A stretch of 10,502 bases of DNA, taken from contig JAPWUQ010000091.1 of the NCBI GenBank assembly GCA_028275445.1, forward strand, positions 1 to 10,502, read 5' to 3'. Below are positions 1 through 10,502 of this stretch, one piece after another. Source of the stretch: Anaerolineae bacterium. Lineage in GTDB: Bacteria > Chloroflexota > Anaerolineae > JACIWP01. Positions within the stretch are counted from its first letter, which is position 1; every line of letters begins with the position of its first letter. The position numbers and the translations under genes were made by a program. The notes beneath the pieces are model-generated. The model saw nothing but the letters and a program-made list of their open reading frames with translations, was not told the DNA's origin and searched no databases.

Positions 1-2
1 AC

Positions 3-401
3 CCGAAGGGGCGCGCCATGTTCCTCTCCCTGGCGGACGATGAGGCCACCCATCTGCGCGTGCTGGAGGAGCAGTTGGCGGCCATCCAGCAGAAGGGATA
101 CTGCGAGGTCCTGCCGGAGATGGGAGAGGCGCCGGCCGGCTGGGATGAGGAACTGTTCCCCAAGGACCCGGCTCTGCTGGAGAAAATCGTCCATCCGGAG
201 GCCAGCGATATTGACGCCCTGATCTTTGCGCTGCAAGCGGAACACAAGAGCTACGAGCTGTACCGCCGCATGGCGAAGGAGACGCAGGACGAGAAGGCGC
301 GCCAGATGTTCCGCTGGCTGGCCAGCGCGGAACGCGGCCATTTCAACCAGTTGATGCTCAATTACGAAGCACTGCTTCAGACCGGCCATTGGGCATCGTA
401 A
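3..401 (+). CDS. Ferritin-like/rubrerythrin-family diiron four-helix-bundle protein, 5'-truncated by window edge (paralog of the next gene)
   Basis: ORF 18..401 stays open upstream to the window start. The in-frame upstream residues 'PKGRA' followed by 'MFLSLADDEATHL' align with 'PKGKKMFMSLANDELGHL' of the downstream paralog (433..960). It contains ExxH motifs (DDEATH, SAERGH) and the same long inter-helix loop as the paralog. The first helix and its Glu ligand must lie upstream of the window. Confidence 0.65.
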   Translation, partial: PKGRAMFLSLADDEATHLRVLEEQLAAIQQKGYCEVLPEMGEAPAGWDEELFPKDPALLEKIVHPEASDIDALIFALQAEHKSYELYRRMAKETQDEKARQMFRWLASAERGHFNQLMLNYEALLQTGHWAS

Positions 402-432
402 TCCATTTTCACATTCAGAAAGGAGCGGTAGG

Positions 433-960
433 ATGCAGTTACAGGAGGCATTGGACATTCTGATTCGGGCGATGGTCAACGAGCAGGACGGCTACGACTT
501 TTACGTGGCGGCCGCCGGCCGGGTGAGCGATCCCAAGGGCAAAAAGATGTTCATGAGCCTGGCGAACGACGAGCTGGGGCATCTGCACATCATCAAGACG
601 GAATATGATAAGGTCACCGCCGGCGGCGGCTTTGTCAACCTCGACGAGGCGCGGCGGAGCCTCCCTCCCGACCCTTCCCTTCAGCTCTTCCCGGATAAGC
701 GCCAGGTACAGCGCATGCTGGAAGCCGCCACGGACGACGAAGCCGCTCTGCGCATCGCCCTGGATTTCGAGCAGAAGGGCTATCACATGTATTCCGACGC
801 GGCACAGCGCAGTACGGACCGCAACGCACAGGAGGTCTTCCGCTTCCTGGCGGATCAGGAGAGCCAGCATTATGAACTCATCCAGAACACCCTGCACTTC
901 CTGACGGACAGCGGGGTCTGGTACTTCCAGGACTCGGAGAAGCCGTTCTTTGAGGGATAA
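433..960 (+). CDS. Ferritin-like diiron four-helix-bundle protein (rubrerythrin/ferritin-like superfamily), 175 aa
   Basis: The RBS aaaGGAGcgg sits 5-8 nt upstream of the ATG. Motifs are E(18) in VNEQDGYDFY, ExxH in NDELGHLH, E in DFEQKGYHMY, and ExxH in DQESQHYE, the classic E/ExxH/E/ExxH diiron ligand pattern. A long loop of about 35 aa lies between helices B and C. No recognisable C-terminal encapsulin targeting peptide is present. Confidence 0.7.
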   Translation: MQLQEALDILIRAMVNEQDGYDFYVAAAGRVSDPKGKKMFMSLANDELGHLHIIKTEYDKVTAGGGFVNLDEARRSLPPDPSLQLFPDKRQVQRMLEAATDDEAALRIALDFEQKGYHMYSDAAQRSTDRNAQEVFRFLADQESQHYELIQNTLHFLTDSGVWYFQDSEKPFFEG

Positions 961-1029
961 CCCGACAGGCACTCGGGCGCTTCGGAAGGGGGAGGAAGGC
1001 ATTTCACACATTGCACAGGAGGTGGACGT

Positions 1030-1533
1030 ATGCGCAAGATGACCAAATCCAATCTGGAAGCGGCCTTCGCCGGCGAAAGCATGGCCCACATGAGGTACTC
1101 CATCTTCGCCGACAAGGCGCGGGAAGAGGGCTTCAACAACGTGGCCCGACTGTTTGAAGCCATCGCCTATGCCGAACGGGTCCATGCGACCAACCACCTG
1201 CGGGTGCTGGGGGGCATTGGCCATTCCACCAATAACCTCCAGACCGCCATTGACGGCGAGACCTTCGAGGTGGAAGAGATGTATCCCGCCTATCGGGTGG
1301 TGGCGGAATCGCAGGACGAGAAGGGTGCCGTGGTGAGCACCACTTACGCGCTGGAAGCGGAGAAGATCCATGCCGCGCTGTACACCGAGGCCAAGCAGGC
1401 GGTGGAGGCCGGCAAAGACATCGAGCCGCGCGATATCTTCATCTGCAGTGTGTGCGGCTACACCGGCTACGGGGAACCGCCGGATGTCTGCCCGGTCTGC
1501 AAGGCCAAGAAAGACAAGTTCCGCTTGTTCTAA
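1030..1533 (+). CDS. rbr: Rubrerythrin (N-terminal diiron ferritin-like domain + C-terminal rubredoxin-like Cys4 domain), 167 aa
   Basis: The RBS cAGGAGGtgg is upstream. The N-terminus 'AAFAGESMAHMRYSIFADKAREEG...AYAERVHA' is typical of rubrerythrin. The C-terminus 'CSVCGYTGYGEPPDVCPVCKAKK' gives a CxxC...CxxC rubredoxin-like Fe(Cys)4 site. Confidence 0.93.
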   Translation: MRKMTKSNLEAAFAGESMAHMRYSIFADKAREEGFNNVARLFEAIAYAERVHATNHLRVLGGIGHSTNNLQTAIDGETFEVEEMYPAYRVVAESQDEKGAVVSTTYALEAEKIHAALYTEAKQAVEAGKDIEPRDIFICSVCGYTGYGEPPDVCPVCKAKKDKFRLF

Positions 1534-1566
1534 ACCGCCCGTCCATCATAACAGGAGGATGCACAC

Positions 1567-1731
1567 ATGAAGAAATGGGAATGCCTGGCCTGCGGCTACA
1601 TCTATGACCCGGCGAAAGGGGACCCCGAAGCCGGCATCGCCCCCGGCACCCCCTTCGAAGACCTGCCTGATGATTGGGTCTGCCCCGAGTGCGGCGCCGC
1701 CAAGGACATGTTTGAGCCGGTAGAGGAATAA
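1567..1731 (+). CDS. Rubredoxin, 54 aa (not in the supplied ORF track because it is under 60 aa)
   Basis: Manual translation gives [54 protein letters not shown]. It has the canonical CxxCG(Y)xYD and CPxCG rubredoxin knuckles. An AGGAGG RBS lies 8 nt upstream, and the TAA stop is at 1729-1731. Confidence 0.9.
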
Positions 1732-1741
1732 TGGATGCCCA

Positions 1742-1777
1742 GGGTGCGGGACGCGCGACCGGACGCGTCCCGCACCC
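1742..1777 (+). other. Perfect 14-bp GC-rich inverted repeat (GGGTGCGGGACGCG / CGCGTCCCGCACCC, 8-nt loop) in the rd-NROR intergenic region. No U-tract follows.
   Basis: Read directly: 1742-1755 is the exact reverse complement of 1764-1777. Confidence 0.8.
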
Positions 1778-1817
1778 CACTCCACGGAACCATGCAGACT
1801 CCAGGAGGGCTTGCCTC

Positions 1818-3038
1818 ATGCGCTATGTGATCATTGGGCAGGGGGTGGCCGGCGTCAACGCCGCGCGCAGTCTGGCCCAGGTCCGCTCCAACGATGATGA
1901 AATCCATATCTATACCGATGAGCAATACCTCTATTATCCCCGGCCGCGCCTGCCGGCCTTCCTGGCCGGCGAGATCACCCTCGATGAGCTGATCCTGTAC
2001 CCGGCCGAGTGGTACGAGAAGCGCGGCATCCAGGTGCATCTCGGCCAGACGGTGACAGCGGTGGACCCGAGGGCCCGAAACATCACCCTGGCGGACGGCC
2101 GGCGGGTGGAATATGACCGCCTCCTGCTGGCCAACGGAAGCCGGCCCAATGTCCCGCCCATCAAGGGCGCGGACAAGAAGGGCGTTTTCACCCTGCGCAC
2201 CATCGCCAATGCCCTGGAAATCCAGGCCTTCGCCCGCACGGTCGAGCGCGCGGTGGTCATCGGCGGGGGGCTGTTGGGCCTGGAAGCGGCGCGAGCGGTC
2301 AGCGCCCTTGGGCCGAAGGTCACGGTGGTGGAGTTCTTCGAGCGCCTGCTCCCCCGCCAGCTCGACTTCGAAGGGGCGCAGGTGCTCCAGCGCGAGATGG
2401 AGCGCTTTGGCCTGACCATCATCACCGGCGCCGCCACGGAGGAGATCCTCGGCGACGGCGCAGTGCGCGGCATCCGGCTGAAAGACGGCCGGGAGATCCC
2501 TGGCGAGATGGTGCTCATCTCCGCCGGCATCCGCCCCAACACCGAGCTGGCCGCGGCCGCCGGCATCCAGGTCCAGCGCGGTGTGGTGGTGGATAACGCC
2601 ATGCGCACCTCCGCCGAGGATATCTGGGCGGCCGGCGATGTGGCGGAGTTCGAGGGGCGCATCTGGGGCATCGTGACCGCGGCGACGGAGCAGGCGCGCG
2701 TCGCGGCCGCCAATATGGCCGCGCCGGCGGGGGAAACGCCGGCGACCTACGTGGACATCATCCCGTCCAACACCCTGAAGGTGGTGGGCATTGACCTCAC
2801 CTCCATCGGCCTGGTGAACCCCGAGGGGGATGGCTATGAGGAAGTGCGGCGCGTGGACGAGGCGGCCGGCCGCTATGAAAAACTGGTGCTCAAGGACGGC
2901 CGCATCGTCGGCGCCATCCTGCTGGGCAATAAGGACAAGGTGCGGCCGGTCACCGAAGCTATCACCCGCAAAATCGATGTCTCCGCGCATAAAGAGGCGC
3001 TGTTGGACGATGCGTTCGATTGGAATTCCCTGCTGTAA
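1818..3038 (+). CDS. NAD(P)H:rubredoxin oxidoreductase (FAD-dependent pyridine nucleotide-disulfide oxidoreductase family)
   Basis: The N-terminal FAD Rossmann motif 'MRYVIIGQGVAGVNAARSL' (GxGxxG) starts at the ATG at 1818, with AGGAGG 9 nt upstream. A second Rossmann motif 'AVVIGGGLLGLEAARAV' binds NAD. 'AAGDVAE' is near the C-terminal FAD contact. The gene sits directly downstream of rubredoxin. The alternative ATG at 1731 overlaps the rd stop (TAATG) but would add a 29-aa Arg/Pro/Gly-rich extension that spans a 14-bp hairpin, so 1818 is preferred. Confidence 0.85.
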   Translation: MRYVIIGQGVAGVNAARSLAQVRSNDDEIHIYTDEQYLYYPRPRLPAFLAGEITLDELILYPAEWYEKRGIQVHLGQTVTAVDPRARNITLADGRRVEYDRLLLANGSRPNVPPIKGADKKGVFTLRTIANALEIQAFARTVERAVVIGGGLLGLEAARAVSALGPKVTVVEFFERLLPRQLDFEGAQVLQREMERFGLTIITGAATEEILGDGAVRGIRLKDGREIPGEMVLISAGIRPNTELAAAAGIQVQRGVVVDNAMRTSAEDIWAAGDVAEFEGRIWGIVTAATEQARVAAANMAAPAGETPATYVDIIPSNTLKVVGIDLTSIGLVNPEGDGYEEVRRVDEAAGRYEKLVLKDGRIVGAILLGNKDKVRPVTEAITRKIDVSAHKEALLDDAFDWNSLL

Positions 3039-3076
3039 CGTCGGGGATACCGCATAAGGTCATATGAGGGAGGGAT

Positions 3077-4021
3077 ATGGACAAGGAAAAGATTATCGAG
3101 CTACTGCATCGGGATATGCAGGATGAGCATGCCGCCGTCATCCAGTACTTGCGCCACGCCTATGCCTTTGGCGAAGGGGAGTTGGCGGCGGAACTGGAGG
3201 CCATTGCCCGCGAGGAAATGCAGCATTTCCGCTGGCTGGCGGATATTGTGGTGGGCCTGGGCGGGAAGCCCAGCATGGTGCGGGGTGAAGTGGTCTTCAA
3301 CGGCCCCAAAATCGTGGATATGCTCCAGGCCGACGTGGAGGCGGAGCAGAGGGCCATTGATCAGTATCTGACCCACATCGCTCTGATTGATGACCCGGAA
3401 ATCGTGGAGGTCCTGCGGCGTATCGTGGCGGATGAGCGCGCCCATATGGGTAAGTTCGAGAAATACGCCGGCGAACAGGACCCCTCAGCCGAAGTCCGCA
3501 TGGAGCCGACCATCACCGAGGCCGACCGCCCTAAGGCGGAGTACCTCCAAAAAGACCTGAAGCATGAGTACACCGTCGTGCTCCAGTACCTGGCCCATGC
3601 CTTCATGACGCCGCACTGCGAGGTCGAACACGAGATGGAATGGCAGGCCATCGAGGAAATGCGCCACATGGGCTGGCTGGCCGAGGAGATGGAATCGCTG
3701 GGCACCCGCGCCGAGATGGTGCATGATCCCCTGATCCTGCCGGATGCGACGGCGGAGATGCTCCAGGCCGACATCGCCATCGAGAAGGAGGTGTCTTCGG
3801 AGTACCGCCGGCAGGCGCTCTCCCTGGGCGCGTCGGACCTGGCCGACCTGTTAGAGCGCATTGCCGGCGAGGAGGACCACCACGTGGTGGTCTTCTCCAA
3901 GCTGTTGGGGGAAGTGGAAGAAGCCGAAAAGCCGGCCCAGCCGGCGGTCAAGCCGGCCTCGTCGGCCGGCGCCAAACCCGGCTTCACCGTTGGAAGCCTG
4001 TTGGGCAAACCGCAGAAGTAA
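3077..4021 (+). CDS. Candidate encapsulin cargo: tandem double ferritin-like/rubrerythrin-like diiron protein (314 aa) with C-terminal flexible linker and cargo-loading peptide
   Basis: The RBS GAGGGAGGG is upstream. There are two internally repeated four-helix-bundle halves. Domain A has approx. E17, E47xxH50, E88/E90 and E120xxH123. Domain B has E164, E194xxH197, E236/E238 and E265/266xxH268/269. A Pro/Ala-rich linker 'EVEEAEKPAQPAVKPASSAGAKP' is followed by the C-terminal 'GFTVGSLLGKPQK' (nt 3980-4018). This resembles family-1 encapsulin targeting peptides such as the '...LTVGSLR..' type recalled for the Myxococcus EncB/C cargo. The gene ends 33 nt before an encapsulin shell gene. Confidence 0.8.
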   Translation: MDKEKIIELLHRDMQDEHAAVIQYLRHAYAFGEGELAAELEAIAREEMQHFRWLADIVVGLGGKPSMVRGEVVFNGPKIVDMLQADVEAEQRAIDQYLTHIALIDDPEIVEVLRRIVADERAHMGKFEKYAGEQDPSAEVRMEPTITEADRPKAEYLQKDLKHEYTVVLQYLAHAFMTPHCEVEHEMEWQAIEEMRHMGWLAEEMESLGTRAEMVHDPLILPDATAEMLQADIAIEKEVSSEYRRQALSLGASDLADLLERIAGEEDHHVVVFSKLLGEVEEAEKPAQPAVKPASSAGAKPGFTVGSLLGKPQK

Positions 4022-4054
4022 CGCAAGCCACCGCGAACATCAGGAGGTATACCG

Positions 4055-4828
4055 ATGACCGATTTGTTGCTGCGCGAGAACGCTCCGTTCGATGCGTCTT
4101 TCTGGCAGATGATTGATGAGGAGGTGCGCGTCGTGGCCTCCCAGCATCTGGTGGGGCGCCGATTTCTCCACCTGGTGGGGCCGCTGGGCGCCGGCGCCCT
4201 GGGCGTGCCGGTCTCCCATCTGGATGTGGAGGGTGCGCCGCGCGTGACCAGCCGCGAGCTGGTGCCCTTCACCACGCTGAGCAAAGAGTTCGTGCTGGCC
4301 TGGGAGGATTTCACCACGGCGGAGCAGTTCGGTCTCCCGCTGGAGCTGGGGCCAGTGGCTATCGCCACCATCCAGTTGGCCGCCGAGGAGGATGGGCTGA
4401 TCTTCGCCGGCCTGCGCCAGGCCAAGGGCACCCATCACGTCTCCCTGGAGAAATGGTCGGAGAGCGGCGGCGCCCTGGCCACGGTGAGCGCGGCGCTGGA
4501 GAAGCTGATGAGCGCCGGCATCTACGGGCCTTACGTGCTGGTGCTGAGCGCCCCGCTGTATGCCCAGGCACAGCGCATCATGGCCAACACCGATGAGCTG
4601 GAGCTGGAGTTCATCGAGGAGTTGGTGGATAAGGTGTACTTCTCGCCCCATTTGCCGGCGAAGGAGGGCTTCCTTATCGCCAACGCGCCCTATAACCTCG
4701 ACCTGGCATTGGCGATGGATATGAGCGTCGCCTATATGGGGAATGAGGGCATGGATCACCGCTTCCGCCTTTTGGAGCGCGTCGCCCTGCGGTTGAAGCA
4801 TCCGCAGGCGGTCTGTGTGCTGAAATAA
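4055..4828 (+). CDS. Family 1 encapsulin shell protein (HK97-fold, Linocin_M18/PF04454-type), 257 aa
   Basis: AGGAGG lies 7 nt upstream. It aligns by eye with the Thermotoga maritima encapsulin. 'ENAPFDASFWQMIDEEV...LVGRRFLHLVGPLG' matches 'SFAPLTEKQWQEIDNRA...LYGRKFVDVEGPYG'. 'SAGIYGPYVLVLS' matches 'KDGIEGPYTLVIN'. C-terminal 'LDLALAMDMSVAY' matches 'FKLILGQDLSIGY'. The length fits a T=1-type family-1 shell. Confidence 0.9.
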   Translation: MTDLLLRENAPFDASFWQMIDEEVRVVASQHLVGRRFLHLVGPLGAGALGVPVSHLDVEGAPRVTSRELVPFTTLSKEFVLAWEDFTTAEQFGLPLELGPVAIATIQLAAEEDGLIFAGLRQAKGTHHVSLEKWSESGGALATVSAALEKLMSAGIYGPYVLVLSAPLYAQAQRIMANTDELELEFIEELVDKVYFSPHLPAKEGFLIANAPYNLDLALAMDMSVAYMGNEGMDHRFRLLERVALRLKHPQAVCVLK

Positions 4829-4834
4829 CCTCTT

Positions 4835-4889
4835 GCGGGCATGGGCCGGCTGGCGAACCCCGCCGCTCCTGCCAGCCGGCCCATGCCGC
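4835..4889 (+). terminator. Strong GC hairpin immediately after the encapsulin stop (17-bp perfect stem GGCATGGGCCGGCTGGC/GCCAGCCGGCCCATGCC, ~16-nt loop) with no U-tract. Putative U-less terminator/attenuator or RNA-stability element.
   Basis: Read directly: 4838-4854 is the reverse complement of 4871-4887, and flanking G-C pairs extend the stem to 19 bp. It lies between the shell stop (4828) and the CorA start (4914). Confidence 0.55.
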
Positions 4890-4913
4890 ACCATCTCTAA
4901 CGGGAGAGCCGCA

Positions 4914-5828
4914 ATGGCACTGCAGGCCGTGACCGAGGCCGGCAGCATGTGGGTGCACATCGCGCCCCTGTCTTCGGAAGACCTGGAGTATCTGCGCCGG
5001 CATTTCCGCTTCCATCCTCTCGACCTGGAAGACCTGACCAGCAAGACCGAACACCCCAAGTTGGATATCTACGACGATTACTTCTTTGCGGTGATGCATT
5101 TTCCGGTCTACAACACCACGCACCGCTTCAGCGCGCCCTGCGAACTGCACTGCTTCGTGGGGGCCAATTACGTGGTGACGGTGCATGACGGCCGGCTGAA
5201 ACCGGTGGATGACCTCTTCGCGGAGTGTCAGCGCAATCCCGTCCTGCGCCAGGACGTGTTGGGGAAAGGTGCCGGCCGGCTGTTCTATGTCATCCTCGAC
5301 CGGCTGGTGGATTACATCTTCCCCATGCTGGGCAGAGTGGGCGGGGAGATATCAGAGATCGAGGAAGAGCTGTTCAGCGCCGACATGGGGGAACTGATCA
5401 CGCGCATCGCCTACCTGCGGCGCGATATTATCACCCTGCGGAGCATCCTTCAGCCGCAGAAGATGGTCATCAGCCACTTAGAGGCGGAGCGCTTCCCGTT
5501 TTTGCCGGCGGAAATGAAAGCCTATTTCGGCGACATCCTGGACGGCTTCACCCGAGCGCTGGACCTGGTGCAGAACTATCATGAGGTCATCCAGAGCCTG
5601 AGCGATACCAGCATGGCCCTGACGTCCTACCGCATCAACGAGGTGATGCGCATCCTGACCATCATATCGGTCATCCTGCTTCCGCTGAGCCTGATCAGCG
5701 GGATTTACGGCATGAATATCGCCCTGCCGCTGGCCGATTCCCCCTGGGCGTTCCTGGTGATCCTGGGCTGGATGGCGCTGGTCGCCGGCATCATGCTGGC
5801 CTTTTTCCGCCGGCGCGGTTGGCTGTGA
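4914..5828 (+). CDS. corA: CorA-family Mg2+/Co2+ (divalent cation) transporter
   Basis: The C-terminal two-TM region carries the signature 'YGMNI' (GMN motif), followed by the second TM 'WAFLVILGWMALVAGIMLAFF' and a basic tail. There is an N-terminal cytoplasmic alpha/beta domain. The start was chosen at the ATG at 4914 (GGGAGAG RBS). The track's ORF start at 4833 lies inside the hairpin and is rejected. An ATG at 4947 is also possible. Confidence 0.88.
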   Translation: MALQAVTEAGSMWVHIAPLSSEDLEYLRRHFRFHPLDLEDLTSKTEHPKLDIYDDYFFAVMHFPVYNTTHRFSAPCELHCFVGANYVVTVHDGRLKPVDDLFAECQRNPVLRQDVLGKGAGRLFYVILDRLVDYIFPMLGRVGGEISEIEEELFSADMGELITRIAYLRRDIITLRSILQPQKMVISHLEAERFPFLPAEMKAYFGDILDGFTRALDLVQNYHEVIQSLSDTSMALTSYRINEVMRILTIISVILLPLSLISGIYGMNIALPLADSPWAFLVILGWMALVAGIMLAFFRRRGWL

Positions 5829-5832
5829 CAAA

Positions 5833-5865
5833 GCGGCCCGGCCGCTAAGCGCGGCCGGGCCTTTC
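5833..5865. terminator. Bidirectional intrinsic terminator between convergent corA (+) and the E2 gene (-)
   Basis: It reads AAA-GGCCCGGCCGC-taagc-GCGGCCGGGCC-TTT. An 11-bp perfect GC stem (5836-5846/5852-5862) with a 5-nt loop is flanked by A-run and T-run, so it can function on both strands. Confidence 0.75.
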
Positions 5866-5883
5866 GCTATGCCCGAGCACAGC

Positions 5884-7230
5884 TCAGGCCAGGAGGAGGT
5901 AGGGGCGCTCGATGAGCTGTTTGACGCGCTGGAGGAAGCGGGCCGCCGGCGCGCCGTCGTTGATGCGGTGATCGAAGGTCAGGCTGAGCACCATCATGGG
6001 GCGGATGACCACCTGGCCGTTGACGGCCGCCGGCTTTTCCACGATGCGGCCGACGCCCAGGATGGCGCATTCGGGCAGGTTGATGATGGGGGTGAAGCCG
6101 TCCACATCATACATCCCCAGGTTGGTGATGGTGAAGGTGCCGCCGCTGAGGTCGTCCGGCAGACTGCGGCCGGCGCGCGCCCGTTCTACCAGCTCGCGGA
6201 ACTCGCTCACGATGTCACCAAGCCGTTTGGAAGCCACATCGCGGATGACCGGCACCAGCAGGCCGCGCTCCGTGTCTACCGCGACCCCGATGTTGATGAC
6301 CCCCAGTTGTTCGATGCGGTTCTCCACCAACCTGGCGTTCATGTTGGGATGTTCCTGCAGTGCCCTGGCGACGATGAGCACCAGGATCTCATTGTATCCA
6401 GGCACCACGCCGCCGGGCAGGGGGGACTGCTTGAAGCTCTCGCGCAACTGCACCAGCGCGGTGGCGTCCACCTCGGTGAAGAGGGTCACTGCGGCGGTGG
6501 TGTGGGCGCTGGCGCTCATGCGTTCGGCGATGATGGCGCGCACGCCGGCCATCGGGATGGCCTGTACGGCCGGCGCGGGGGCCGGCGCCGCCGGCGTCAC
6601 CGGCATGGCGGCGCGTTCCACCGCCAATTTGGTGATGCGCTCCGGGCCGGCGGCCAGCGTCTCCAGGGGCACGCCCATTTCCTCAGCCAGTTTGCGGGCG
6701 GCCGGCGTCGCCTTCGGCAGGGAAGCGGCATAGGCCAGCACATCCCGCTCCACGATGCGGCCGCCTGGTCCGGTGCCGGTGATGCGCTCCAGGGGCACGC
6801 CCAACTGTCGGGCGGCCATGCGCGCCCTGGGAGAGGCAAACCGCCGGCCTTCCGGTGCAGGCGGTGCTTCCGGGGCGGATGGGGCGGCCGGCGCGGCAGG
6901 GGCGGCCGCCGGCGCGGGGGCCGATGGTGCGGTGGCCGGCGCGGCGGTTTCCGGCGCGGCCGCCGGCTTCAGGTAGCGGCTGATATCCTCGCCCGGCTCC
7001 CCGATAATTCCCACTACTTCCAGGATGGGGACCGTCTCGCCGGGATGGCGCAGGATTTTGAGCAGGGTGCCGCTGGCCGGCGCCTCCGCTTCCAGCGCCG
7101 CCTTGTCCGACTCGAACTTGAAGATGGGCTCGCCCTTTTTGACGGTGTCGCCTTCTTTGACGTACCACTCGATGATGGTGCCGGCCTCCATGGTCTGGCC
7201 CATCTTGGGCATAATCACTTCTTTCGCCAT
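5884..7230 (-). CDS. Dihydrolipoamide acyltransferase (E2) of a 2-oxoacid dehydrogenase complex: lipoyl domain, two peripheral-subunit-binding domains, catalytic domain
   Basis: The start 'MAKEVIMPKMGQTMEAG' has a GGAG RBS and lies 20 nt after the E1 stop. The lipoyl motif is 'FESDKAALE', with the lipoyl-Lys codon at 7102-7104. Ala/Pro linkers are present. PSBD-1 is 'SPRARMAARQLGVPLERITGTGPGGRIVERDV'. PSBD-2 is degenerate: 'TPAARKLAEEMGVPLETLAAGPERITKLAV'. The catalytic 'DHRxxDG' motif is 'TFDHRINDGAPAARF'. The track ORF (to 7518) over-extends into E1. Confidence 0.92.
   Translation of the reverse strand: MAKEVIMPKMGQTMEAGTIIEWYVKEGDTVKKGEPIFKFESDKAALEAEAPASGTLLKILRHPGETVPILEVVGIIGEPGEDISRYLKPAAAPETAAPATAPSAPAPAAAPAAPAAPSAPEAPPAPEGRRFASPRARMAARQLGVPLERITGTGPGGRIVERDVLAYAASLPKATPAARKLAEEMGVPLETLAAGPERITKLAVERAAMPVTPAAPAPAPAVQAIPMAGVRAIIAERMSASAHTTAAVTLFTEVDATALVQLRESFKQSPLPGGVVPGYNEILVLIVARALQEHPNMNARLVENRIEQLGVINIGVAVDTERGLLVPVIRDVASKRLGDIVSEFRELVERARAGRSLPDDLSGGTFTITNLGMYDVDGFTPIINLPECAILGVGRIVEKPAAVNGQVVIRPMMVLSLTFDHRINDGAPAARFLQRVKQLIERPYLLLA
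6850..6966 (-). repeat. Low-complexity GC-rich tract encoding the Ala/Pro-rich inter-domain linker of E2 (PAAAPETAAPATAPSAPAPAAAPAAPAAPSAPEAPPAPE)
   Basis: The DNA is runs of GCSGCCGGCGCG-type imperfect repeats, and the protein linker is typical of E2 lipoyl-arm hinges. Confidence 0.7.
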
Positions 7231-7250
7231 GGCGCTACTCCTATCCCTGA

Positions 7251-9323
7251 TTAATACACCAGTTGACGGACGGCGGCCTCGATGCGCTCGACGTTCGGGA
7301 TGGCCGCATCCTCCAGCGTCTCCGCCATGGGGACCGGCACATCCGCCGCCGCCACCCGCACCATCGGCGCATCCAGATAATCGAATGCCAGCTCGTTGAT
7401 GATGGTGAAGACCTCGCTGATGAAACTGCCGGTCTTGTAGGCCTCCGTGACCCCGACGACGCGCCCGGTCTTCTTGACCGATTCGATGATGGTGTCCACG
7501 TCGAGGGGCTTCAAGCACCGCAGGTCCACCACCTCGACATCAATGCCCTCTTTGGCAAGGTTCTCGGCGGCCTCCAGGGCGCGCAGGACCATGCGGGAGT
7601 AGGTGATGATGGTGACATCCTTGCCTGGGCGCTTGATGTCGGCGACGCCCAGGGGGATGGTGTATTCCTCTTCGGGCACCGGCCCTTTGGTGCCGTAGAG
7701 CATCTTGTGCTCGATGAACATGATGGGGTTATCGTTGCGGATGCACTCTTTGAGCAGGCCCTTGGCGTCGTACGGGGTGGCCGGCATGACCACATAGATG
7801 CCCGGGAAGTGGGTCCACAGCGCTTCCAGGCTCTGGGAGTGGTGCGCGGCGATGGAGCGGCCGGCGCCCCCTTCGGTGCGGATGACCATGGGCACCTTGG
7901 TCTTGCCGCCGAACATATAGCGGTTCTTGGCGCCCTGATTGGCGATCTGGTCCATGGCCAGCGGGGTGAAGTCCACGTACATGATCTCGGCGACCGGGCG
8001 CATGCCGGTCATGGCGGCGCCCACTGCCGCGCCGCCGATGGCGGCCTCGGAGATGGGCGTGTCAATGACCCGCTCCGGCCCAAATTCCTGGTACAGCCCG
8101 CGCGTGGCGCCATATGCCCCGCCGTACAGGCCGACATCCTCGCCCATGATGAAGACGTGGGGATCGCGCTTCATCTCCTCGCGGAAGGCCTCCACCAGCG
8201 CCTCCCAATAGTAAATCTGGCGCATGTTGGGGTCACTGCGCACCCGCTCCCGCAGTTCCCGCTCTTTGGCGATCTGGCTGGGCGTATAGATCGTCGGGAC
8301 GTAGACGTCGTCGTACAGCTCGGAGGGGTCGGGGAAGGGGGAGTTCAGGGCGAAATCAATGGAGATTTCGACGGCCTTCTCGCAGGCTTTGGCCAGCTCG
8401 TCCAGCTCCTGCTGGGTGACTAGGCCGGCCTCCAGCATGCGCCGCTCCAGGTTGGTGATGGGGTCGCGTTCCTTCCAGGCCTTCTCCTCCTCGCGGGTGC
8501 GGTACACGCGCGGGTCGGAGCGCGAATGCCCGTACCAGCGGTAGGTCTTGCATTCGATGAGGGACGGCCCTTCCCCGCGGCGGGCGCGCTCCACGGCGCG
8601 GGAGACGGCGTCGCGCACGGCCAGCACATCCATGCCGTCCACCACCTCGCCCGGGATGCAGTAGGCGCAGGCGCGATCGGCGATGTTCTTACAGCTCGAG
8701 GCCTTTTCAAAGGGCACGGACATGCCGTACAGGTTGTTCTCCACGATGTAGACGACGGGAAGCTTCCAGATGGCGGCCATGTTGAGCGATTCGTGGAAGT
8801 TGCCGGTGTTGGCCGCGCCGTCGCCGAAGAAGCAGAGCACCACGCGGTCCGATTTCTGGAGTTTCATGGAGAGGCCGGCGCCGGTGGCCACGGGGATGTT
8901 GCCGCCCACGATGCCGGTGGCGCCCAGGTTGCCGCGCTCCACGTCGGCGATGTGCATGGAGCCGCCGCGGCCGCGGCAGTAGCCGGTGGAGCGCCCGCAC
9001 AGCTCCGCCATCATTTTGTTCAGGTGCTCCTGCTTCTCCTCGGGGGTTTTGGCGAGCCGGTCGCCGCGGGCGTAGCAATGTCCGTGGCCGCGATGGGTGC
9101 TGGTGATGAGATCGTCATCGCGCAGGACGCTGATGGCGCCGACGGCGACGGCTTCCTGGCCGGCGTACAGGTGGGACGCGCCCTTGATGATGTTGCGGCC
9201 CAATAGGTCATAGACCGCTTCCTCAAAGTTGCGGATGATGCGCATCTGGCGCAGGTAATCCAGCAAATCCTCGCGGGTGATGCCCTGTGCCTGCATGATG
9301 GTCTTCAAGTCGGTGACGTTCAT
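7251..9323 (-). CDS. Fused E1 alpha-beta component of a 2-oxoacid (pyruvate/acetoin/branched-chain) dehydrogenase, TPP-dependent, 690 aa
   Basis: The N-terminal half is E1-alpha: 'YAGQEAVAVGA...HRGHGHCYARG', the TPP motif 'GDGAANTGNFHESLNMAAIWKLPVVYIVENN', and 'YRWYGHSRSDP'. The C-terminal half is E1-beta: 'GEDVGLYGGAYGATRGLYQEFGPERVIDTPISEAAIGGAAVGAAMTGMRPV' plus the C-terminal transketolase-like domain. The RBS GAGGAG is 5 nt upstream of the ATG at 9323. Confidence 0.9.
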   Translation of the reverse strand: MNVTDLKTIMQAQGITREDLLDYLRQMRIIRNFEEAVYDLLGRNIIKGASHLYAGQEAVAVGAISVLRDDDLITSTHRGHGHCYARGDRLAKTPEEKQEHLNKMMAELCGRSTGYCRGRGGSMHIADVERGNLGATGIVGGNIPVATGAGLSMKLQKSDRVVLCFFGDGAANTGNFHESLNMAAIWKLPVVYIVENNLYGMSVPFEKASSCKNIADRACAYCIPGEVVDGMDVLAVRDAVSRAVERARRGEGPSLIECKTYRWYGHSRSDPRVYRTREEEKAWKERDPITNLERRMLEAGLVTQQELDELAKACEKAVEISIDFALNSPFPDPSELYDDVYVPTIYTPSQIAKERELRERVRSDPNMRQIYYWEALVEAFREEMKRDPHVFIMGEDVGLYGGAYGATRGLYQEFGPERVIDTPISEAAIGGAAVGAAMTGMRPVAEIMYVDFTPLAMDQIANQGAKNRYMFGGKTKVPMVIRTEGGAGRSIAAHHSQSLEALWTHFPGIYVVMPATPYDAKGLLKECIRNDNPIMFIEHKMLYGTKGPVPEEEYTIPLGVADIKRPGKDVTIITYSRMVLRALEAAENLAKEGIDVEVVDLRCLKPLDVDTIIESVKKTGRVVGVTEAYKTGSFISEVFTIINELAFDYLDAPMVRVAAADVPVPMAETLEDAAIPNVERIEAAVRQLVY

Positions 9324-9341
9324 GTTCTCCTCTTACCCCTT

Positions 9342-10163
9342 TTATCGTTCTGGTCTGCGCAAGGGCAGTGTTGGGACGGGTGATGCGGCCGGCTCCTGGA
9401 GCGGGGCGACGCGCACATCCACGCCGGCGGCGCGGAGGCGCGCAATCACATCCGCCGGCGTCCGCTCATCGGTGATGATGCGGTCGAAGGCCTGGATGGG
9501 GGCTACAATGGCGTAGGAAGTGCGCCCGAACTTGGTGTGATCCACCAGCAGGATCTTCTGGCGGGCGATTTCCAGCATGGCCGCCTTGACCTCCGCCTCG
9601 TACAGGTTGCTGTTGGTGACGCCGGCCTCCAGGGAGATGGCCGGCGTGGCCAGGAAGGCCTTGTCGGCGGTGAAGCGGCGCAGGGCGGCCACCGCCAGCG
9701 GCCCGACGAAGGAAGCAGTCGGCTCCCATAGGGCGCCGCCGGTGTGGATGACGGTGATGTCCGGCGCTCCGATGAGGATGTTGACGACGTAGAGGGAGTT
9801 AGTGATGACGGTGAGATGGCGTTTGCCGATGAGCCGGCGGGCGAAATGGGCGATGGTGGTGCCGGCGTCCAGCACGATGGTGTCGCCGTCCTCCACCAGT
9901 TCCGCCGCCAGGCGGGCGATGGCCTCTTTCTCGGCCAGTTGGGTGCCTTCGCGGGCATAATAGGGCAGGTCGCCGGGGGGATATTTCAGCAGTACCGCGC
10001 CGCCGTGGGTGCGCCGCAGGACGCCGCGCTCCTCCAGCCGCGCCAGGTCCCGGCGGATGGTCATCTCCGAGACGCCAAGCTCCTCGCTCAATTCCGCCAC
10101 GGAGACGCTCTGCCGCTCGTTGATCAATTGGAGGATCCTGGTCTGGCGTTCTGCCGGCTGCAT
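9342..10163 (-). CDS. DeoR-family transcriptional regulator (N-terminal HTH + DeoR C-terminal sugar-phosphate-binding domain)
   Basis: The sequence is 'MQPAERQTRILQLINERQSVSVAELSEELGVSEMTIRRDLARLEERG' (DeoR HTH) followed by 'TIVLDAGTTIAH...LTVITNSL' of the DeoR C-domain. The start is the ATG at 10163, preceded by a GGGGTGGGG purine tract. The 23-aa extension in the track is discounted. The stop is 18 nt before the E1 start, so they are likely co-transcribed. Confidence 0.85.
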   Translation of the reverse strand: MQPAERQTRILQLINERQSVSVAELSEELGVSEMTIRRDLARLEERGVLRRTHGGAVLLKYPPGDLPYYAREGTQLAEKEAIARLAAELVEDGDTIVLDAGTTIAHFARRLIGKRHLTVITNSLYVVNILIGAPDITVIHTGGALWEPTASFVGPLAVAALRRFTADKAFLATPAISLEAGVTNSNLYEAEVKAAMLEIARQKILLVDHTKFGRTSYAIVAPIQAFDRIITDERTPADVIARLRAAGVDVRVAPLQEPAASPVPTLPLRRPER

Positions 10164-10191
10164 TCCCCACCCCTGCTGTTCATTCAAACAC

Positions 10192-10220
10192 ATTATATCA
10201 CACTTTCTTGCGCATTTCAA
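10192..10220 (-). promoter_or_regulatory. Near-consensus sigma70 promoter for the DeoR/E1/E2 operon: -35 TTGAAA, 17-nt spacer, extended -10 TGaTATAAT
   Basis: The minus-strand read is cTTGAAAtgcgcaagaaagtgTGaTATAATgtgtttgaatgaacagcaggggtgggga-ATG. The -10 is at 10192-10197 and the -35 at 10215-10220. It lies in a ~70-bp AT-rich island (about 35% GC against ~67% around it). The predicted TSS is ~20-25 nt before the ATG. Confidence 0.7.
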
Positions 10221-10301
10221 GATAGATAGCACAAGATATCCGACAGCAAAGGGCTGGGCGCCGCGGTGCTCCCGCGGCGGGTCAAGGAGGGGGAGGGAAC
10301 G

Positions 10302-10329
10302 AAAAAGGCCCGGGTTATGTCCCCAGGCC
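10302..10329 (-). terminator. Intrinsic terminator for the edge gene (stem GGCCUGGG/CCCGGGCC with one G-U wobble, loop GACAUAA, then UUUUU on the minus-strand RNA); the stem overlaps the stop codon
   Basis: Read directly: the plus strand is AAAAAGGCCCGGGttatgtCCCCAGGCCttt, and on the minus strand the stem is followed by a U5 run. Confidence 0.6.
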
Positions 10330-10502
10330 TTTCAGCAGGGCGCCGACGGCATAGGCGACGCCGGCGGCCAACCCGCCCACAATCAGCATCTCCAGCCCAC
10401 TGCGCAGGGGGTTCTGCCCGGTGACGTACACCTTGGCCGCGCCCAGGCCGAAGAGCGCCAGGGCCGAAAGGGCCAGGGAAACGGGGAAGGACAGGTGTGA
10501 AG
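10316..10502 (-). CDS. 3' part of a small Gly/Ala-rich membrane protein (possibly GlsB/YeaQ/YmgE 'transglycosylase-associated' family); 5' end beyond the window
   Basis: The minus-strand translation ends ...SLALSALALFGLGAAKVYVTGQNPLRSGLEMLIVGGLAAGVAYAVGALLKGLGT* with a TAA at 10316-10318. It has a hydrophobic GxxxG/AxxxG-rich TM-like sequence. The family call is by resemblance only. Confidence 0.4.

Follow-up and report, generated by a model that had tools for sequence, protein, structure and literature searches.

A rubredoxin and a putative rubredoxin reductase as recurrent companions of an encapsulin-targeted double ferritin-like protein in Chloroflexota

Is the ferritin-like cargo of an encapsulin redox-coupled to the cytosol, or are shell and peroxidase merely co-regulated? 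The question is raised by a stretch of 10,502 nucleotides (hereafter the window) from an Anaerolineae bacterium (assembly GCA_028275445.1, contig JAPWUQ010000091.1, positions 1 to 10,502 of the forward strand), in which genes for a rubrerythrin (Rbr), a rubredoxin (Rd) and an NROR-type FAD/NAD(P)H oxidoreductase (NROR) directly precede those of a double ferritin-like protein (DFLP) and a family 1 encapsulin (Enc). Characterisation of DFLP cargos dates only from 2025, and the four proteins NROR, Rd, DFLP and Enc make up a system in which the question can be asked; they are probably thermostable, given a presumed hot-spring-like source. The answer to which we incline, at about even confidence, is that the region is one co-regulated island of oxidative-stress and iron defence with two parallel arms, cytosolic reduction of H2O2 and encapsulated oxidation of Fe2+.

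Eight tightly packed genes occupy the forward strand of the window between positions 1 and 5828, with gaps of 31, 69, 33, 86, 38, 33 and 85 nt and a GGAGG or AGGAGG ribosome-binding site ahead of every start codon. The genes of the 1030-4828 cassette and its five junctions, those with gaps from 69 to the second 33 nt, lie where the first-pass annotation had placed them. It had also described the redox genes as fused to the encapsulin locus; they adjoin it, but they are separate genes. The first one, rbr (1030-1533, +), encodes a protein of 167 amino acid residues with a diiron four-helix bundle (E, ExxH, E, ExxH; PF02915, 1.2e-24) followed by a C-terminal Cys4 rubredoxin-like domain (CSVCGY...CPVCKA; PF21349, RUBY_RBDX, 1.6e-11). 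It scores 93.6 bits against NCBIfam RuberyRbr, under the equivalog cut-off of 200, and is therefore assigned at family level only. The rubredoxin (1567-1731, +; 54 residues) shows the two CxxCG knuckles, CLACGY and CPECG, and matches PF00301 (1.3e-25) and NF045768 (RubredRD, 105.5 bits, cut-off 90). The oxidoreductase (1818-3038, +; 406 residues) contains two Rossmann dinucleotide folds and the C-terminal domain of rubredoxin reductases (PF07992, Pyr_redox_2, 1.1e-62; PF00070, 2.3e-23; PF18267, Rubredoxin_C, 3.1e-20), and its gene has that of a rubredoxin as neighbour, as is the case in most relatives. It reached no NCBIfam equivalog cut-off, and NAD(P)H-dependent reduction of rubredoxin is predicted from characterised family members.

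The cargo gene (3077-4021, +) encodes 314 residues with two Ferritin stretches, forming two bacterioferritin-like four-helix domains. Cargo residues 3-272 align with residues 13-286 of PDB 9viw chain A (E 4.8e-38), a homology by which we assign the protein to the DFLP family and regard its fold as settled. The third-best PDB match of its N-terminal domain is 1nf4, the bacterioferritin (Bfr) of Desulfovibrio desulfuricans. In an alignment of 30 homologues the diiron ligands of both domains (E17, E47, H50, E90, E120, H123 and E164, E194, H197, E236, E266, H269) are invariant, so that each keeps a full EEHEEH set, and the two haem-ligand methionines, M48 and M195, are invariant as well. The C-terminus ends ...GFTVGSLLGKPQK and holds the encapsulin targeting peptide FTVGSL (residues 303-308; 3983-4000, +) behind an Ala/Pro-rich linker of ~25 residues; TVGSL is kept in 24 of the 30 homologues. 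The hexapeptide fits the [LF]-x-[VI]-G-x-[LI] motif defined for this family (bioRxiv 10.1101/2025.09.13.676036), and a family 1 encapsulin gene lies downstream.

The same preprint, of September 2025, describes the DFLP family, of which 9viw is the only solved member, and gives as its hallmarks an EEHEEH set in the N-terminal domain, shared by 57% of the C-terminal ones, and two fully conserved haem-ligand methionines (M48 and M198 in TmDFLP); it reports that TmDFLP is a dimer with substoichiometric haem binding and ferroxidase activity, oxidising iron without added reductant, and that the C-terminal peptides of DFLPs are predicted to dock on encapsulin (bioRxiv 10.1101/2025.09.13.676036). These proteins had earlier been classed as two-bundle "Bfr" cargo of Firmicutes, Aquificae, Chloroflexi and Cyanobacteria (Andreas & Giessen 2021, PMC8346489). 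The suggestion of the first-pass annotation that the cargo might be a peroxidase of the rubrerythrin type thus gives way to a DFLP of bacterioferritin-like build, with ferroxidase activity reported for the solved homologue; the other half of that suggestion, a cargo that needs reductant, gains some support from a natural rubredoxin::DFLP fusion described below.

The shell gene starts 33 nt downstream of the cargo gene (4055-4828, +; 257 residues; NF041155, encap_f1, 209.6 bits, cut-off 100; PF04454, Linocin_M18, 1.4e-53), and its product, an HK97-fold protein above both family thresholds, finds its nearest solved relative in EncA of M. xanthus (4pt2, 7s20, E ~5e-43). In the T. maritima shell, Trp87 (W90 in PMC8610991) stacks on FMN; this column holds E or R in the window protein and in four related shells, and a flavin-binding shell of the T. 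maritima type was discarded as a candidate. A conserved Trp stands one column before that position.

Upstream of rbr, the two further ferritin-like genes that had been noticed in the window are both present, each with a full E, ExxH, E, ExxH ligand set. Only the 3' part of the first, Flp-a, is found in the window (1-401, +; PF02915, 2.9e-07), which cuts it at its edge; the complete gene starts 96 nt further left (165 residues; 6828-7325 of L001, the longest of at least 20 metagenomic contigs on which the exact cargo sequence is present). The second, Flp-b (433-960, +; 175 residues; PF02915, 1e-12), has E17, ExxH (DELGH), E and ExxH (ESQH). Both are rubrerythrin-family diiron proteins without a rubredoxin domain. 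Inspection of the translations found no targeting peptide on Flp-a, Flp-b, Rbr, Rd or NROR, which are therefore cytosolic, and the cargo is the sole carrier of one.

Conservation of this arrangement was studied around DFLP genes of other genomes. In a scan that represented each species by a single genome, 410 genomes contained DFLP, and the neighbourhood analysis covers the best 80 of the 410 loci, all from species-level, metagenome-assembled genomes of Chloroflexota, a single phylum because only these best 80 matches were retrievable. Neighbours were called by six-frame open reading frames (ORFs) and phmmer, with profile searches seeded from the window proteins and from Pfam-identified neighbours, and family identity was checked with Pfam for representatives only. 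Locus counts are phylogenetically non-independent, which grouping of the targeting-peptide loci into 13 lineages (70% cargo identity) partly mitigates. Loci were informative when their upstream sequence reached 3 kb or more; 15 of these have a targeting peptide on the DFLP and 48 do not.

DFLPs with a targeting peptide are mostly labelled Anaerolineae, and a few are labelled Chloroflexia or only Chloroflexota. An encapsulin gene lies next door in 13 of the 15 loci, and the usual order is Rd-NROR-(Rbr-SOR or DJ-1)-DFLP-Enc, where SOR is superoxide reductase. NROR is found near the DFLP in 11/15 loci (11/13 lineages) and rubredoxin in 9/15 (not counted by lineage), and rubrerythrin is found in 6/15 (4/13 lineages). 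Rbr is the least conserved member, and therefore the conserved partners of the shell system are Rd and the reductase, not the full Rbr cassette. The redox neighbourhood recurs across classes, in other Chloroflexota at 43-49% cargo identity, with gene order and strand kept; the arrangement of the window is thus not a product of chance. By the first-pass annotation, loss of this synteny in relatives would have refuted its assignment of the redox block to the encapsulin pair; the synteny is kept and the assignment stands, with Rd and NROR as the conserved part of the "complete" cassette that it had described and Rbr as the variable one.

Direction is conserved as well: all 45 same-strand rubredoxin genes are upstream of the DFLP and none is downstream. 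Across the 80 genomes, the same-strand neighbours include rubredoxin-dependent stress enzymes (Rbr, superoxide reductase, flavodiiron protein), peroxiredoxin of the 1-Cys type, a glutaredoxin-PDZ protein (Grx-PDZ) and proteins like Flp-a and Flp-b; SufBD, a PAS_10 protein and a Cu-ATPase are also frequent, and nearly all of these genes share the strand of the DFLP. At 25 loci with rubredoxin, the flank that was captured contains none of Rbr, superoxide reductase and flavodiiron protein. Two variants of the arrangement were noted beside these counts. NROR ORFs of 464-487 residues (longest-ORF calls) with a rubredoxin-like C-terminus (...GA.K..F..LEE) at L024 2042-3436, L049 1181-2596 and L051 8265-9728 suggest NROR-rubredoxin fusions beside DFLP. 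Rd-NROR also precede a targeting-peptide DFLP at L049 2659-3606, where 8.8 kb of downstream sequence contain no encapsulin gene; like TmDFLP, for which this has been proposed, the protein may serve as a secondary cargo of a shell from another locus.

The search was also made in reverse, from an NROR alignment to the 80 closest metagenomic loci. DFLP and/or Enc accompany NROR at three of the seven nearest loci (at least 48% identity), and flavodiiron protein, superoxide reductase or Rbr does so at the rest; farther out among the 80, DFLP is never present. An NROR specific to DFLP systems was discarded on this result, with only 3/7 of the closest loci having DFLP or Enc. NROR-Rd, found also beside other oxygen enzymes and without DFLP, is therefore a general module, not a cargo-specific reductase, which supports the reading of two parallel arms.

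DFLPs without a targeting peptide show a different set of neighbours. The 48 loci, mostly of Dehalococcoidia, contain no encapsulin gene (0/48), and NROR is found in 2/48 in relation to 11/15 of the loci with a peptide (Fisher p = 1.5e-7, uncorrected for relatedness). Instead, a flavin reductase (PF01613) is found upstream in 26/48 and rubredoxin in 33/48. In at least 12 Dehalococcoidia species the rubredoxin gene lies 13-80 nt upstream of the DFLP with the flavin reductase ahead of it, as part of a collinear string of Flp, SufBD, flavin reductase, rubredoxin, (PAS_10), DFLP, Flp and Grx-PDZ (loci including L016, L025, L030, L033, L034, L041, L054, L056, L067, L072, L075 and L082). Judged by position, the flavin reductase looks like a non-orthologous replacement of NROR. 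In some of the peptide-less loci its ORF also scores as rubredoxin, which suggests a flavin reductase-rubredoxin fusion. Furthermore, at L092 6712-6948 a cytochrome b5-like protein of 78 residues is encoded directly upstream of a peptide-less DFLP, in the usual position of rubredoxin, and may be a non-orthologous replacement of the small electron carrier.

If the region works as one island, its genes should be transcribed together. In L001 the same-strand run extends to 11 genes, encoding an SH3-domain protein, an MTHFR-like protein, glutaredoxin-PDZ, Flp-a, Flp-b, Rbr, Rd, NROR, DFLP, Enc and a CorA-family protein, with gaps of 22-86 nt. A perfect promoter, TTGACA-17-TATAAT (12/12), is located between the SH3 and MTHFR-like genes at L001 5304-5332, ~1.6 kb left of the window. 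In L011, a relative with a 92% identical cargo that was used for the conservation checks of promoter and hairpins, both hexamers are kept while spacer and flanks have diverged; the promoter is therefore marked by a phylogenetic footprint. An internal promoter candidate at window 1703-1732 (9/12) was rejected, as it is not conserved in L011. No intrinsic terminators were found between the genes of the run, only hairpins without U tracts. Short gaps, ribosome-binding sites, the lack of terminators and one strong upstream promoter are consistent with a single transcript from rbr to enc.

Of the PerR/Fur-type promoter that had been presumed upstream of the window, the strong promoter is there, and no recognisable regulator box was found with it. 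Between L001 4000 and 12900, boxes for Fur, PerR, Rex and Zur were no better than in shuffled sequence, with best matches of 13/19 for Fur and 9/14 for PerR both in the shuffled range; the consensus sequences come from other phyla, which makes this a weak negative. An Rfam scan of the 21-kb source locus found only a tRNA-Sec gene, and no riboswitch in the ~95-nt leader. The tRNA-Sec gene (L001 4116-4214, -; RF01852, 69.2 bits; ARAGORN anticodon TCA) lies ~2.7 kb to the left of the window, in the divergent intergenic region upstream of the gene run, and makes it probable that the organism uses selenocysteine. The gene that follows the promoter in the window's organism, that of an MTHFR-like flavoprotein (PF02219, 271-281 residues), is found in the DFLP-Enc strand run of several lineages (L001 5431-6246, L091 3280-4107, L095 4764-5591, L098 2342-3187; also in L011 and L018).

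Three hairpins stand out in the run. The first (1742-1777, +), between the Rd and NROR genes, is G+C-rich with a stem of 14-15 bp and no U tract (z -2.6); its stem is retained in L011 while loop and flanks have diverged, and it is possibly a transcript-stabilising or attenuating element. The second, after enc (4834-4890, +), has a G+C-rich stem of ~20 bp without a U tract (-52.9 kcal/mol, z -5.4; 0/200 shuffles fold as well) and is kept in L011 with one compensatory change from U-A to G-C. It is likely a 3'-end or stability element that sets the expression of CorA apart. The third lies between the convergent CorA and E2 genes (5835-5861, strand not assigned; -40.8 kcal/mol, z -4.4), is followed by UUUCGCU, and is probably a bidirectional terminator that ends the run.

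On the reading of a two-armed island, the region would be the core of the defence against oxygen, peroxide and iron in an anaerobic or microaerophilic host of the Anaerolineae type. One long transcript would start at the promoter of the sigma-70-type consensus and run from the MTHFR-like gene to enc, with partial read-through into corA, and would presumably be induced by oxidants. In the cytosol, electrons would pass from NAD(P)H to the FAD of NROR and on to rubredoxin, and from rubredoxin to the Cys4 domain and diiron site of Rbr, probably also to Flp-a and Flp-b; Rbr and the Flp proteins, to judge from characterised family members, would convert H2O2 to water. In the compartment, the FTVGSL C-terminus would tether DFLP dimers inside the family 1 shell, where DFLP may oxidise Fe2+ that enters through the pores with O2 or H2O2, so that ferric mineral is laid down in the lumen. 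Jointly the two arms would clear both Fenton reagents.

Several results weigh against this reading. Rbr, the enzyme at the end of the first arm, is the member most often missing near targeting-peptide DFLPs, with only four of the 13 lineages. At L012, L019 and L094 a compact Rd-NROR-DJ1-DFLP-Enc(-FMN reductase-Crp) cluster is flanked by housekeeping genes. Neither Rbr nor superoxide reductase, flavodiiron protein or Flp is encoded within 7-10 kb of it, and the first arm therefore lacks an encoded terminal enzyme there. In one lineage the rubredoxin is part of the cargo itself, as a 392-residue rubredoxin::DFLP::targeting-peptide fusion (P0076/P0182) with enc 3 nt later. In addition, the boxes of the expected regulators were at the shuffled level, and the run could be divided, at the conserved hairpins that follow Rd and Enc, into units whose expression differs.

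The fusion bears on a tentative second explanation, which we rate as possible and on the unlikely side: that the DFLP cargo has a dedicated electron donor in rubredoxin, which NROR reduces, and that Rbr is optional. Electrons would enter at the inter-domain haem or at a diiron site and drive a rubrerythrin-like cycle of H2O2 or O2 reduction, or a reductive mobilisation of iron like that of Bfd and bacterioferritin; for the encapsulated form they would have to cross the shell, or rubredoxin be co-packaged. The fusion was found at L091 5517-6695, L095 7001-8179 and L096 252-1430, in three independent samples with a one-residue difference, and an assembly artefact was rejected for that reason. 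An unfused Rd-NROR-Rbr set is encoded as well at L095, 5 kb upstream, and its Rd and the fused one are 67% identical. However, only one lineage has the fusion: in relatives at ~84% cargo identity the cargo is unfused, with neither Rd nor NROR within 9 kb at L097 and L098, and neither a word-indexed search with P0076 nor a full scan of 1.84 billion representatives found a second Rd-DFLP fusion architecture. One clade has a tiny ORF (61-73 residues) with a weak match to the ferritin-like DUF2383 just upstream of DFLP (L091 4997-5218, L095 6481-6702, L097 7741-7926, L098 5090-5278), which could be a half-ferritin or a remnant.

Beyond the fusion, a dedicated donor would agree with the greater constancy of NROR over Rbr among lineages, with the position of all same-strand rubredoxin genes ahead of the DFLP, with the 25 rubredoxin loci whose flank shows no Rbr, superoxide reductase or flavodiiron protein, with the close upstream rubredoxin that the peptide-less DFLPs of Dehalococcoidia keep while the reductase is swapped, with the cytochrome b5 in the place of rubredoxin at L092, with the invariance of both haem-ligand methionines, and with the Rd-NROR-DJ1-DFLP-Enc clusters, where no other candidate acceptor is encoded. 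Against it, Rd and NROR have no targeting peptide of their own and exceed the known pore size of encapsulins, and the shell lacks the flavin-binding Trp of T. maritima. Elsewhere the neighbourhood often encodes Flp-a, Flp-b, superoxide reductase or flavodiiron protein, any of which could as plausibly be the acceptor, the NROR-Rd module is also found without DFLP, and the characterised homologue TmDFLP is a ferroxidase that works without added reductant. The stronger formulation, in which Rd (with NROR, or with the flavin reductase in Dehalococcoidia) would be the physiological donor of DFLP and DFLP a rubredoxin-coupled haem/diiron oxidoreductase, we hold to be doubtful. If it were true, an encapsulated DFLP would need reducing equivalents across or into the shell, for reduction of peroxide or O2 or for controlled release of iron, and one lineage would have partly solved shell access by fusing rubredoxin to the cargo. 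Redox coupling of an encapsulin cargo to a cytosolic rubredoxin chain, if real, would bear on how electrons reach the interior of encapsulins and how iron is recovered from them.

A third explanation, that rbr-rd-nror and dflp-enc are independent units under unrelated regulation in a chromosomal region where stress genes cluster, appears improbable. The fluid composition of the island between lineages, the conserved hairpins after Rd and Enc, and two DFLP-Enc pairs without any redox neighbours (L014 and L083) would fit it; nevertheless, gene order and strand are kept across classes at the cargo identities given above, the gaps are short with a ribosome-binding site at each start, and the run has neither intrinsic terminators between its genes nor a strong internal promoter, the sole 9/12 candidate being unconserved.

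Least probable by our estimate, and very much so, is a role in iron recovery and not in peroxide removal, in which NROR-Rd, or in other lineages the FMN reductase beside the shell gene, would reduce small diffusible mediators such as flavins that enter the shell and reduce the ferric core: an FMN_red/Flavodoxin_2 gene directly after or near enc at L094 and L097, the flavin reductase in the NROR position of Dehalococcoidia and the shell precedents of the EncD ferric reductase (PMC11126975) and the Bfd-like ferredoxin of IMEF systems (PMC8346489) speak for it, but it is purely inferential, nothing in the window points to a mediator, and the DFLPs of Dehalococcoidia have no shell and hence no core to mobilise. 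The FMN reductase/Flavodoxin_2 genes concerned adjoin DFLP-Enc together with a gene for a Crp/Fnr-family regulator (L094 8891-9559 and 9773-10435; L097 6525-7154 and 12477-13142); both are absent from the window, and they are candidates for a flavin-based route of iron release and for a regulator of the island.

The remaining genes of the region surround the island on its right. The last gene of the same-strand run encodes a CorA-family divalent-metal channel (4914-5828, +; 304 residues; PF01544, 1.1e-67; TIGR00383, 209.6 bits, cut-off 200.75) and is lineage-specific, being found here and in L011 only (1/15 targeting-peptide loci). A 2-oxoacid dehydrogenase operon converges on the island (5884-7518, - and 7251-9323, -), with an E1 alpha-beta fusion of 690 residues and an E2 whose Ala/Pro-rich linker reaches 76% G+C and whose length differs among strains (432-448 residues); after it, at 9342-10232, comes the gene of a DeoR-family regulator. 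About 0.2 kb past the right end of the window, here as in L011, a VIT1-family iron/manganese transporter is encoded (L001 17222-18040, -) next to TldD/PmbA genes. Long antisense ORFs of 339-462 residues over NROR, Enc and E2 (1602-2990, -; 4040-5059, -; 5869-7254, +) are low-complexity and rich in Arg, Gly and Ala; most likely they are spurious, a product of the high G+C content.

Every component of the locus belongs to a known family, the DFLP-encapsulin pair has been described, and a rubredoxin/rubrerythrin neighbour has been noted once; in the literature searched, only two papers name encapsulin and rubredoxin together. What appears undescribed is that DFLPs with a targeting peptide have Rd and NROR, rather than Rbr, as their conserved neighbours, which is unreported in bioRxiv 10.1101/2025.09.13.676036 and PMC8346489; that unencapsulated DFLPs keep rubredoxin and swap the reductase; the packaged rubredoxin-DFLP fusion; and the full 11-gene unit with its footprinted promoter. 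The presence of Rd and NROR beside the cargo-shell pair in most lineages suggests a common job in oxygen and iron defence. If the two arms are linked by co-regulation only, the locus still shows cleanly how a Fenton defence can be encoded as one unit, with a half for Fe2+ and a half for H2O2.

Among known systems, the closest are the TmDFLP and CaDFLP pairs with encapsulin, which share with the window the two-domain chain with EEHEEH, the two haem methionines, the C-terminal FTVGSL, the encapsulin gene directly downstream and full-length homology to 9viw. TmDFLP has ESHEEH in its C-terminal domain, whereas the window cargo has the full EEHEEH there. For CaDFLP, of a Firmicute, genes with rubredoxin and rubrerythrin domains were noted a few positions off, without follow-up (bioRxiv 10.1101/2025.09.13.676036); here the pair stands in line with a full set of Rd, NROR and Rbr and with two additional diiron proteins.

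The redox genes have their own precedent: NROR, rubredoxin and rubrerythrin form the NAD(P)H peroxidase chain of anaerobes such as Clostridium, Pyrococcus and Desulfovibrio. The window encodes all three components with their diagnostic domains and metal ligands; in contrast to that chain, the cassette is embedded in a putative encapsulin operon and Rbr is dispensable across relatives. The fusion P0076/P0182 has the domain order of reverse rubrerythrin, an N-terminal rubredoxin followed by a diiron bundle, but adds a second ferritin domain and an encapsulin targeting peptide, and the window cargo is unfused.

For a small iron protein beside a ferritin-like partner, rubredoxin-2 of the bfr-rd2 operon of Desulfovibrio desulfuricans reportedly reduces bacterioferritin, in work of da Costa and colleagues in 2001, a precedent that would favour rubredoxin as direct donor of the cargo. 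The Bfr-Bfd ferredoxin pair (PMC7762939) and the Bfd-like ferredoxin of IMEF encapsulins (PMC8346489) have in common with the window a gene for a haem protein of the bacterioferritin type beside that of a small iron protein, between which electron transfer is possible. The IMEF ferredoxin carries its own targeting peptide (PMC8346489), whereas the rubredoxin here has none, save in the one fused lineage, and DFLPs, to judge from TmDFLP, form dimers in place of the cages of bacterioferritin.

Finally, a precedent for cooperation between rubrerythrin and encapsulin is offered by analogy by Pyrococcus furiosus, in which rubrerythrin tubules surround ferritin-encapsulin particles under O2 stress (bioRxiv 10.1101/2025.03.19.643997). 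Common to both systems would be a rubrerythrin and an iron-mineralising encapsulin acting against O2 and H2O2. In P. furiosus, however, the link is physical and the genes lie apart (PF1283 versus PF1191/PF1192), whereas those of the window stand together on one strand, and the cargo there is a fused single Flp domain and not a DFLP.

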